Positions 19,001 through 22,272 of a DNA stretch of 64,000 bases are shown here, piece by piece; position 1 is the stretch's first letter; each line of letters begins with the position of its first letter. The stretch is from Eledone cirrhosa (lineage: Eukaryota). A program made the position numbers and the translations under genes. The notes beneath the pieces were generated by a model. That model was not told the origin of the DNA and did no database searches. It saw nothing but the letters and a program-made list of their open reading frames with translations. The DNA is taken from positions 270,258,001 through 270,322,000 of the forward strand of contig OZ024741.1 of assembly GCA_964016885.1 (NCBI GenBank), written 5' to 3'.

Positions 19001-21073
19001 AGTTGCTATTATTATTGTTGTTGTTTTTGTAGTTGCTGCTAACACAAAAAAAATACCATTATGACCACTGTTAGTACCATTAATAGCCATACTGTTTTAG
19101 TCATGTTAAATATATGTATATATATAATGTGTGTATGTATATATATATATATATATGTGTATGTATATATGTGTGTGTATGTATATATATGTGTGTATGT
19201 ATGTATATATGTGTGTGTTCTTTTACTGGTTTCAGTCAGACTACGGCCATGTTAGGGCACATTTTTTATATACTGTTGCTACTCAATAGCCGTAGCAACA
19301 GAGCAAAATATCTCTATAATATAACATATATATATGTATATATATATATAGATATAGATATGTGTGTTAGAATCGTCTAACTCCGTGAAACCTTGGGTAA
19401 TGAAATAATTATATTGTGCTTGTTTATTTCATAATTAAATAGCTCTGTACTAAACATAGAGCACCCTTCTTTCCTTTACCTTTTCCACGGAAATACTTAA
19501 CACACACATATATATATATATGTATATTTATATATAATTCTCCACATCTCTTCCTCGTGTTTGTAAACCCAAACATACGGATTATATATATGTGTGTGTG
19601 TATATATATATATATATATATATATATATATATATATACACGCACAGAGATATGCATATAAAAGCAACAATTTAATATAAACACAAAAAATATTTTATTT
19701 GAAATATATCCAAAAATGACCATCCCCAAATATAATAATACCAACAAAAAATATTACTTATCACTAAAAAGGCATGTATGTCACAGAATCACCTTCATTC
19801 CATATATCTACATAATATCTATGTCGTCATATATTAAAAACAAAAAAATCATTCATTGTTTATAGCCATAATTCCTGATTGTTGTTGTTGCTAGCTTCAG
19901 TTGTTTTCTTTGCCATTATCTCTGGTTTAATGTTGTGGTTAACCCCAGATAAACATATATATATACATATATACACACACATGCATATATATATATATAT
20001 ACATATGTATAAAGACACAAATATATATATATATATATAACACACATTCACACACAAATATATATATAACATCATCATACGTCCGCTTTAAAAATGATTA
20101 TATATATATATATATATATATATATATATAGATAGATATATATATATATAACACATATATATACGCATATATAAATAGATATAAACACAAATATACGTAT
20201 ACACATTTATAAATGTATATATATATATATAAATACACATATGTGTGTGCATATACATATGAACAGGCACACACACGTCAACCTTCATAAAGCAGACATA
20301 TGATCAAAAGGCATTCCATCCGAGAACACGTCTTTGTAGGCGTCTTTGAAAGAGTATATTTAGGATTATATTATGCAATGTGACCCCCCCCCCTTTTTTT
20401 TTTAAAAGAAAAACATTCATAGGTAGGCTGTTCATTGCGAGAGATATGGCTGCTATTTCTAGCCGGACGAGCAACCATATAGAAGCTCCTTCTCTGGCTT
20501 TCGTTATTGCTAATGGTGTTCCTTGTGGTTGTAAACAAATCGTGTGTTGGTTTACCTCAAATATTAGAAGGAAAATCCAGCGCTTCTTGTGGCCTGAGAT
20601 GTAGTGTGCCCCGTCTTCTACCATTATTTCTTCTTTTTTAAAATTATTTAATGTGTGTGTATGTCTATATATATGTGTGTGTGTATGTATGTCTATGTAT
20701 ATATGTATACGTGTGTATGCGTATGTATATATATATATATATATATCTGTGTGTGCGAATGTGTATGTGTATATATATATATATGAATGTGTGTATATAT
20801 ATATATACACTGATGATTTCTCCCGAATGAAACAGTTCTAGTCCTGTAGAAGCCTTTTCTATATTAAATATTTATACTCTGATTTGTATTGAGTACCTTA
20901 CTTACTGTGGTTACCCCCGATTGAACACGACATAAACTTATATATATATATATATACGTGTGTGTGTGTATTTGTATGTATGTATGTATATATATATATA
21001 TATATATATATATATATATATATATATATATATGTATAATATAAGATCAAAAGATGGTTAAAAGAGTTCCATG

Positions 21074-21144
21074 TATTTTATTATGCGCATTTCAAAAACA
21101 AATATCATCATGGGATGATACTTGCGTTCTCATCAGATAAAATA
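21074..21144 (-). ncRNA. Type I hammerhead ribozyme, family A (intact core)
   Basis: TATTTTAT-CTGATGA-long stem II-GAAA-TGCGCA-TA-ATAAAATA. Confidence 0.8.
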
Positions 21145-21247
21145 GGGAGACATGATATGAAGTTTAAAAAACACTTGCGAGTAGTGAAGTGTTAAATCTA
21201 CACTTCACTGCTCGCAAGTGTTTTTTAAACTTCATATCATGTCTCCC

Positions 21248-21318
21248 TATTTTATCTGATGAGAACGCAGATATCATCCCATGATGATATTTGTTTTTGA
21301 GATGCGCATAATAAAATA
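21248..21318 (+). ncRNA. Hammerhead family A, mutated core (GAGA for GAAA)
   Basis: Inverted partner of 21074-21144. Confidence 0.65.
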
Positions 21319-21650
21319 CATGGAACTCTTTTAACCATCTTTTGATCTTATATTATTTATACTCCAGTACTGTAAACTGTAGAGTGCTTCTTATCCGATA
21401 TTTGCATTGCTTTATTGTACTACAATAAAACTCACCTCCTACATATATATATATATGTATATATATATATATATATATATATATATATGTATATATATAT
21501 ATATATATATATATATATATATATATATATATGTATATATATAGGAGGTGAGTTTAAAGCAATGCAAATATCGGATAAGAAGCACTCTACAGTTTGTAGG
21601 ACTGGAGTATAAATAATATAAGACCAAAAGATGTTTAAAAGAGTTCCAAG

Positions 21651-21718
21651 TATTTTATTATGCGCATTTCAAAAACAAATATCATGAGATGATATCTGCG
21701 TTTTCATCAGATAAAATA
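21651..21718 (-). ncRNA. Hammerhead family A (intact core)
   Basis: Same architecture as 21074-21144. Confidence 0.8.
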
Positions 21719-21814
21719 GGGATACATGATATGAAGGTTAAAAAACACTTGTGAATAGTTGATTTAAAACTTCACTAATCACAAGTGTTTTTTAACCTAC
21801 ATATCATGTATCCC

Positions 21815-21885
21815 TATTTTATCTGATGAAAACGCAGATATCATCTCATGATGATATTTGTTTTTGAAATGCGCATAATAAAATA
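21815..21885 (+). ncRNA. Hammerhead family A (intact core)
   Basis: TATTTTAT CTGATGA AAACGCAGATATCATC-TCAT-GATGATATTTGTTTTT GAAA TGCGCA TA ATAAAATA; predicted cleavage after 21877. Confidence 0.85.
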
Positions 21886-22009
21886 CTTGGAACTCTTTTA
21901 AACATCTTTTGGTCTTATATTATTTATAGTAGTGCAGTTTTAAATCAACATATGTTGATTTAAAACTGCACTACTCGCAAGTGTTTTTAACCTTCATATC
22001 ATGTCTTCC

Positions 22010-22080
22010 TATTTTTTCTGATGAAAACACAAATGTTATTGCATGATGATATTTGTTTTTGAAATGCGCATAATAAAATA
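22010..22080 (+). ncRNA. Hammerhead family A (intact core, one stem I mismatch)
   Basis: CTGATGA at 22018, GAAATGCGCATA at 22061; predicted cleavage after 22072. Confidence 0.75.
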
Positions 22081-22272
22081 CATGGAACTCTTTTAACCAT
22101 CTTTTGATCTTATATTATACATATATATGTATACGTGTGTGTATGTATATGCATACTAGTATTTCAGTATACATATGTGGATGTACATTTTTAACTTAAT
22201 TGTTTAAGCGTCAGTCATACAAAAGTGAGTTACAAACGAAACGAAATTTAATTTCGTTTCGTTATTTGTTTT

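Follow-up and report, generated by a model that had tools for sequence, protein, structure and literature searches.

Five hammerhead-bearing units in Eledone cirrhosa as probable inverted insertions of a Penelope-like element family into one (TA)n tract

The window, a stretch of 64,000 nucleotides of the Eledone cirrhosa genome, contains an array of five copies of a pLTR in the orientation - + - + +, as located by BLAST within the window. The earlier note had described five hammerhead copies in this same order. The features, with their probable assignment to three insertions (A, B, and C) that is argued below, are as follows.

20810-20938 (plus), 48281-48400 (minus), 45385-45557, 48120-48473, and 59692-59886: second hammerhead family
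21036-21192, minus: pLTR copy 1 (BLAST)
21036..21196, minus: short arm of probable insertion A, pLTR copy 1 without tail (BLAST, folding)
21074-21144, minus: copy 1 hammerhead, intact core, predicted cut after 21082
21197..21443, plus: long arm of probable insertion A, pLTR copy 2 and an 85-nt tail
21200-21356, plus: pLTR copy 2 (BLAST)
21248-21318, plus: copy 2 hammerhead, core change GAGA, predicted inactive
21357..21400, plus: predicted small hairpin at the tail start, directly behind the short 3' end (folding)
21444..21542, no strand: (TA)n microsatellite between probable insertions A and B, their likely target sequence
21543..21757, minus: long arm of probable insertion B, tail with a 14-nt deletion and pLTR copy 3
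21555/21613-21754, minus: pLTR copy 3 (BLAST)
21651-21718, minus: copy 3 hammerhead, intact core, 3-nt deletion in stem II
21758..21928, plus: short arm of probable insertion B, pLTR copy 4
21769-21928, plus: pLTR copy 4 (BLAST)
21815-21885, plus: copy 4 hammerhead, intact core, predicted cut after 21877
21929..21954, minus: 26-nt inverted arm of probable insertion C, centred on the palindromic hexamer 21949-21954
21949..22118, plus: short arm of probable insertion C, pLTR copy 5, of another subfamily
21965-22118, plus: pLTR copy 5 (BLAST)
22010-22080, plus: copy 5 hammerhead, intact core, stem I mismatch at 22016, predicted cut after 22072

The inverted arms at 21031-21192 and 21200-21361 are 96% identical, and a second inverted pair (21284-21414 and 21555-21685) flanks the (TA)n spacer, which confirms the two palindromes around this spacer that had been reported before. 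Copies 2 and 3 are extended by a tail of 83-85 nt. The fifth copy had been regarded as a tandem copy; it does follow copy 4 consecutively on the same strand, but it has a short inverted arm of its own (21928-21975) and thus is not a plain tandem duplicate. The output of a direct-repeat search was dominated by (TA)n. No ORF lies in the array, in keeping with the reported lack of coding capacity, and ARAGORN found no tRNA.

Every copy is built from an 8-bp stem I, the CTGATGA box, a long stem II, the GAAA box, a helix III that is palindromic, and an AUA site; in stem II, pair 4 is a pyrimidine mismatch, with three pairs before it and about 12 after it (about 15 bp). As GAGA replaces GAAA in copy 2, the number of intact cores is four of five, the figure given earlier, and these four have the complete type I hammerhead core (CUGANGA / GAAA / UH, three helices). 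The anatomy of the copies also agrees with their earlier description as type I hammerheads with a short palindromic helix III. Folded in isolation, copies 1-4 form stems I and II with a probability of 0.88-0.99, and the mismatched stem I of copy 5, folded alone, pairs with a probability of 0.31. A hammerhead model search, which had been proposed as a check, came back empty: the Rfam hammerhead model gave no match at the gathering threshold, nor was there one among 65 matches up to E = 10. The Rfam miRNA matches are palindrome noise.

We compared 18 distinct sequences from three families whose stem II sequences are unrelated: all 18 retain stem II pairs 1-3 along with the pair 4 mismatch, and in 15 the four unconstrained letters of helix III are self-complementary. 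This retention across families suggests selection in active lineages; stem I and the core were part of the search pattern itself, so that their conservation across the stem II families proves nothing. In 48 loci that were not selected for the ribozyme, rare changes numbered 10/830 in the core versus 39/1990 in the flanks, so that the core is not kept significantly better (p = 0.21); an earlier core figure of 15/1548 was discarded because loci selected by pattern bias core conservation. We also considered that copies might start at the ribozyme cut, and rejected this, as none of 29 5' ends fell within r120-132 around the cut site. The 5' ends lay close to the palindromic hexamer of the unit start in 11/29 cases and near -232/-236 in 4/29 (L062-L090 and others), and these clusters may be transcription start or microhomology hot spots. 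Of the two other stem II families, 10 loci were inspected, none of them with an ORF within 1.5 kb.

According to folding predictions, closure of helix III costs a monomer about 2.9 kcal/mol, and the palindrome dimerises at -10.5 kcal/mol. These modelled energies make dimer-type cleavage plausible, as the earlier note had supposed and as described for retrozymes in PMC7229834. In RNA read through the array from either strand, each of copies 1-4 is preceded by an antisense arm, and in the full read-through folds the pairing probability of their stems I and II is 0.0 on both strands. The antisense arms are therefore predicted to abolish four of the five ribozymes in read-through RNA, all fold results being equilibrium predictions. 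In the context of the pLTR, stem I is predicted to stay largely open even when no antisense arm is present. The hammerhead would be a passenger of the pLTR, cutting would need a dimer or help from a protein, and in read-through RNA of this locus the hammerhead would be locked in long double-stranded hairpins.

Copies related to the unit are found elsewhere in the genome at 95-98% identity (best 40 of 446 candidates), and at many fetched loci a pyrimidine-rich stretch, and before it the end of an ORF, lies upstream of the unit. A protein search of the genome with the ORF end returned 58,324 candidates, of which the best 150 were scored, and in most of 21 protein-selected loci a pLTR follows the ORF end at a distance of about 1 kb. 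One locus (L051) has the layout pLTR, tail, open frame of 715 residues, 3' UTR, pLTR, and tail, with a period of about 3.7 kb; another (L060) has pLTR, tail, and the ATG with its ORF. The hammerhead ends about 200 nt before the ATG. The single ORF linked to the unit encodes an RT with a GIY-YIG endonuclease at the C-terminus, and the pLTRs occur in direct and inverted orientation with an optional tail on one end, as for EN+ Penelope-like elements. The linkage to a Penelope-like ORF that had been named as a further check is thereby established, and the kinship with Penelope-like pLTRs is borne out.

The ORF contains RT motifs including YRDD, together with DKT and a CxCx5C linker. Beside the endonuclease E and N it has CxxC and CxH; the GIY and YIG strands enclose no Cys pair, and CCHH is absent. 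Section 11 of PMC8557442 (Craig et al. 2021) gives DKT, the CxCx5C linker, CxxC/CxH, and the lack of CCHH as marks of the Hydra clade, and four of the five Hydra-clade motifs checked are present in the ORF; the position of RWK reads RWI in the family of the array and RWK, RWR, or RWT in relatives. A Pfam search with the P0001 protein returned no family and a PDB search with the profile returned no chain; among the aligned relatives, 1/14 matched RVT_1 and 1/14 matched GIY-YIG. As Pfam matches are scarce, the identity of the domains rests on motifs and relatives. A search for protein homologues retrieved 204 proteins at about 30-40% identity, most of them unnamed and none with a usable name. 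Judged by its sequence context, the unit is the pLTR of an autonomous-type Penelope-like family with Hydra-clade motifs, the clade being assigned by motif; a non-autonomous element in its own right, as the earlier note had proposed, is not supported.

Further likenesses to the C-terminal EN+ elements of the Hydra clade, as described in PMC8557442, are the single RT and GIY-YIG ORF, the (TA)n target, and a hammerhead near the 3' end. However, the period of about 3.7 kb compares with units usually shorter than 3 kb in that clade, the tail of 83-85 nt with a typical 30-40, and the stem II of about 15 bp, with its mismatch at pair 4, with 3-7 bp in File S2. The hammerhead of the array is unlike that of Hydra-1_Obim, its helix III motif was not found in the supplement text, and its family is apparently not among the hammerhead-bearing families in the available part of that supplement (PMC8557442). 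The L051 ORF carries an Asn-rich insertion of about 75 residues (about 490-570, between the RT thumb and the linker) that is absent from most relatives; N-rich inserts are known in Adineta Penelope (PMC3846280). Two copies with a frame of 760 residues, L049 and L050, are nearly identical, lie on different chromosomes, and are truncated alike, each being followed by an inverted pair; they are likely one duplicated locus.

The hammerhead motif has 31,687 exact matches in the genome (15,958 and 15,729 on the two strands), which supplies the copy number that the earlier note had called for. A reversed control gave 0, so the motif is not there by chance. Among the first 100 listed matches, which cover the first 19 Mb of one chromosome, there are 13 head-to-head pairs within 500 nt, holding 26 of the 100, and no tail-to-tail pair within that distance. 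Extrapolated to the genome, this would amount to some thousands of palindromes. In a set of 102 loci, the family was present in 92 and a head-to-head pair in 51. Inverted 5' copies with a tail on one end are textbook features of Penelope-like elements (PMC8557442, PMC3846280), and in File S2 of PMC8557442 Penelope-13_HM from Hydra is entered with hammerheads on both strands, owing to 5' inversion.

Comparing the five copies of the array, we found identities of 153/157 between copies 1 and 2 and 141/142 between copies 3 and 4, and of 128/141 to 143/155 between copy groups. They fall into three subfamilies (99% versus 90-93% identity), and each copy group has closer relatives elsewhere in the genome. 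Copy 5 differs from relatives elsewhere at 1-2 positions and from copy 4 at 16 (138/154 identical), and an inverted arm lies between these two. In a lower-bound search (40 scored candidates, 68 matches), the junction of copies 4 and 5 found no end-to-end match other than itself. The three subfamilies and a junction without a match elsewhere thus point to three insertions into (TA)n, likely not to one mobile array. We therefore read the five units as Penelope-like pLTRs that arrived in three separate 5'-truncated, 5'-inverted insertions into one (TA)n tract, with a probability of about 0.88. Copy 3 might also have been an arm displaced from insertion C; this was rejected, as it matches copy 4 (141/142) and not copy 5 (128/141).

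The arms of such pairs obey a simple rule. At loci picked by similarity, 29 of which were required to have a tail on one arm, 150/154 arms end at one of two sites, the short end or a site 83-85 nt further, and 49/51 inverted pairs consist of one long and one short arm; the other two could not be classed, and no long/long or short/short pair occurred among the 51. The inverted arm of insertion C fits neither fixed end. The sequence beyond the arms runs into (TA)n at 75/80 ends. The two arms of a pair diverge by 2.6%, versus 8.6% between loci; the nearest short arm proves to be the partner in only 15/29. Arm junctions show small overlaps or gaps. In 11/49 pairs the long arm consists of tail sequence only, downstream of the short end, so that the arms share no template, and in 8 of these 11 the arms are adjacent within 30 nt. 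A predicted small hairpin lies behind the short end, and full elements have a diverged second copy of it behind the long end; the alignment score of this second copy exceeds all 500 shuffles, although in one local window another fold has the lowest energy. In two other families, the hairpin motif was likewise seen behind the short end, in one copy with a tail from each.

These regularities lead us to lean, by a modest degree, toward the view that the lopsided palindromes record double-ended priming on one element RNA, with the start sites marked by the twin hairpins. The endonuclease would cut both strands of (TA)n, and each DNA end would prime a cDNA on the element RNA, one at each start site. 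Both cDNAs would stop early and anneal through a few matching bases, leaving a lopsided palindrome. Insertions A and B would be double-ended products of this kind; insertion C would likely have gone into the TA-like end of B, and its inverted arm measures, or was reduced to, only 26 nt. A precedent is the Poseidon element PAc of Anolis (PMC11167929), whose protein cuts and extends both strands, whose cDNA starts at two internal sites bounding the tail, and whose target is AT-rich. Its hammerhead is dispensable for insertion, with no reads at the cut site, and overlaps the ORF start, whereas that of the array family ends upstream of the ATG. A literature search by title and abstract, outside which most subscription papers lay, returned nothing that joins Penelope and twin priming. 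With thousands of such pairs by extrapolation, the family is a natural data set for deciding between double-ended priming and the published self-priming model, and the long/short rule and the arms that share no template bear on how Penelope-like elements make inverted copies.

In the self-priming model, which is favoured for Penelope/Pen2a of Adineta vaga in PMC3846280, the inverted arm arises when one cDNA or antisense template folds back and primes itself. Like the array family, that element has head-to-head inverted pLTRs with a tail on one, palindromes and microhomology at junctions, solo pLTRs, and secondary insertions into other copies (PMC3846280). Many junctions here have a palindromic hexamer or small overlaps at their centre, the arms share subfamily letters, and insertion C resembles a 26-nt fold-back, as the model would have it. 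However, a fold-back copy must repeat the first arm and so cannot yield arms without a common template, as in the 11/49 pairs described, and the 49 long/short pairs against none of equal arms are left unexplained. Fold-back may account for some junctions, such as that of insertion C; as the general origin of the inverted arms we consider it less likely than priming from both ends, which the non-overlapping arms favour.

Single palindromes, that is, inverted pairs made of pLTRs only, might instead be re-mobilised as MITE-like units. The breakpoint at the centre of palindrome B does recur at 5/14 fetched look-alike loci, an outcome that mobility of the palindrome would likewise produce, but these loci are the best matches among probably thousands of palindromes, carry other subfamily letters, and lack B's 14-nt tail deletion wherever the tail segment is readable (7/7), and other junctions vary widely. 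From these sequences, we read the recurrence as repeated joining where microhomology favours it; a mobile palindrome we regard as improbable.

Slightly less probable still is that copies 4 and 5 form a nascent retrozyme, whose transcript from the centre of B would be cut twice as a dimer to release a monomer or circle of 195 nt. The pair offers two consecutive units on the same strand with intact cores, cut sites 195 nt apart, and a helix III self-duplex of favourable energy, and retrozymes have been proposed to derive from pLTRs (bioRxiv 10.64898/2026.07.22.740005). Metazoan non-LTR retrozymes likewise have type I hammerheads in short, AT-rich, non-coding, consecutive units (PMC7229834; bioRxiv 10.64898/2026.07.22.740005), although here only copies 4-5 are consecutive. 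On the other hand, copy 5 has a mismatched stem I, neither copy is predicted to form stem I in that transcript, and the 4/5 junction has not spread among the 40 scored candidates. Moreover, retrozymes are head-to-tail repeats of one unit with a complete hammerhead in every repeat, as far as these two sources describe them, whereas the array is mostly inverted and mixes subfamilies, and its unit is the terminus of a coding element.

The earlier note had gone further and proposed a single non-autonomous element with working ribozymes on both strands, reminiscent of ambisense viroid-like RNAs. Intact cores on both strands and the lack of an ORF in the array speak for such a design, which we nevertheless consider very unlikely. 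The array mixes three subfamilies, its 4/5 junction was matched only by itself among the 40 scored candidates, and the predicted sequestration of the ribozymes by antisense arms argues against it. Motifs on both strands are the usual outcome of 5' inversion, as illustrated by Penelope-13_HM (PMC8557442). Thus, an animal genome may carry hammerheads on both strands without any viroid-like agent being behind them. Fold-back chimeras are a known artefact of long-read and amplification data, but an artefactual origin of the palindromes is the least credible reading, as the arms differ by 1-3%, the long/short asymmetry is regular (at thousands of loci by extrapolation), and one short-read contig matches 21891-21957 without a difference, with one side of only 29 letters and from a run that may be the assembly's own sample. 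Short-read contigs on 21545-22118 came mostly from other copies, and none spans the stretch.

As three probable insertions of a Penelope-like family, the locus itself is one of thousands of such scars and matters little. The second hammerhead family of the window is unrelated to that of the array, with a 3-bp helix III and a GUA site; it lies in (TA)n, often inverted, and a truncated copy stands 100 nt to the left of the array. A sister family, with the same stem I and a different stem II, has hammerheads at 60185 (minus), 60336 (plus), and 46040 (minus), the first two forming another head-to-head pair. Another Hydra-style hammerhead motif, with short stems, is present at 49333 (plus). A partial tRNA match without a D arm at 50652-50706 (minus; Rfam 32.5 bits, not called by ARAGORN) is perhaps a SINE head. 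Finally, decayed RT and endonuclease fragments at 1494-3149 (minus), about 40% identical to the protein of the array family, belong to another Penelope-like element.
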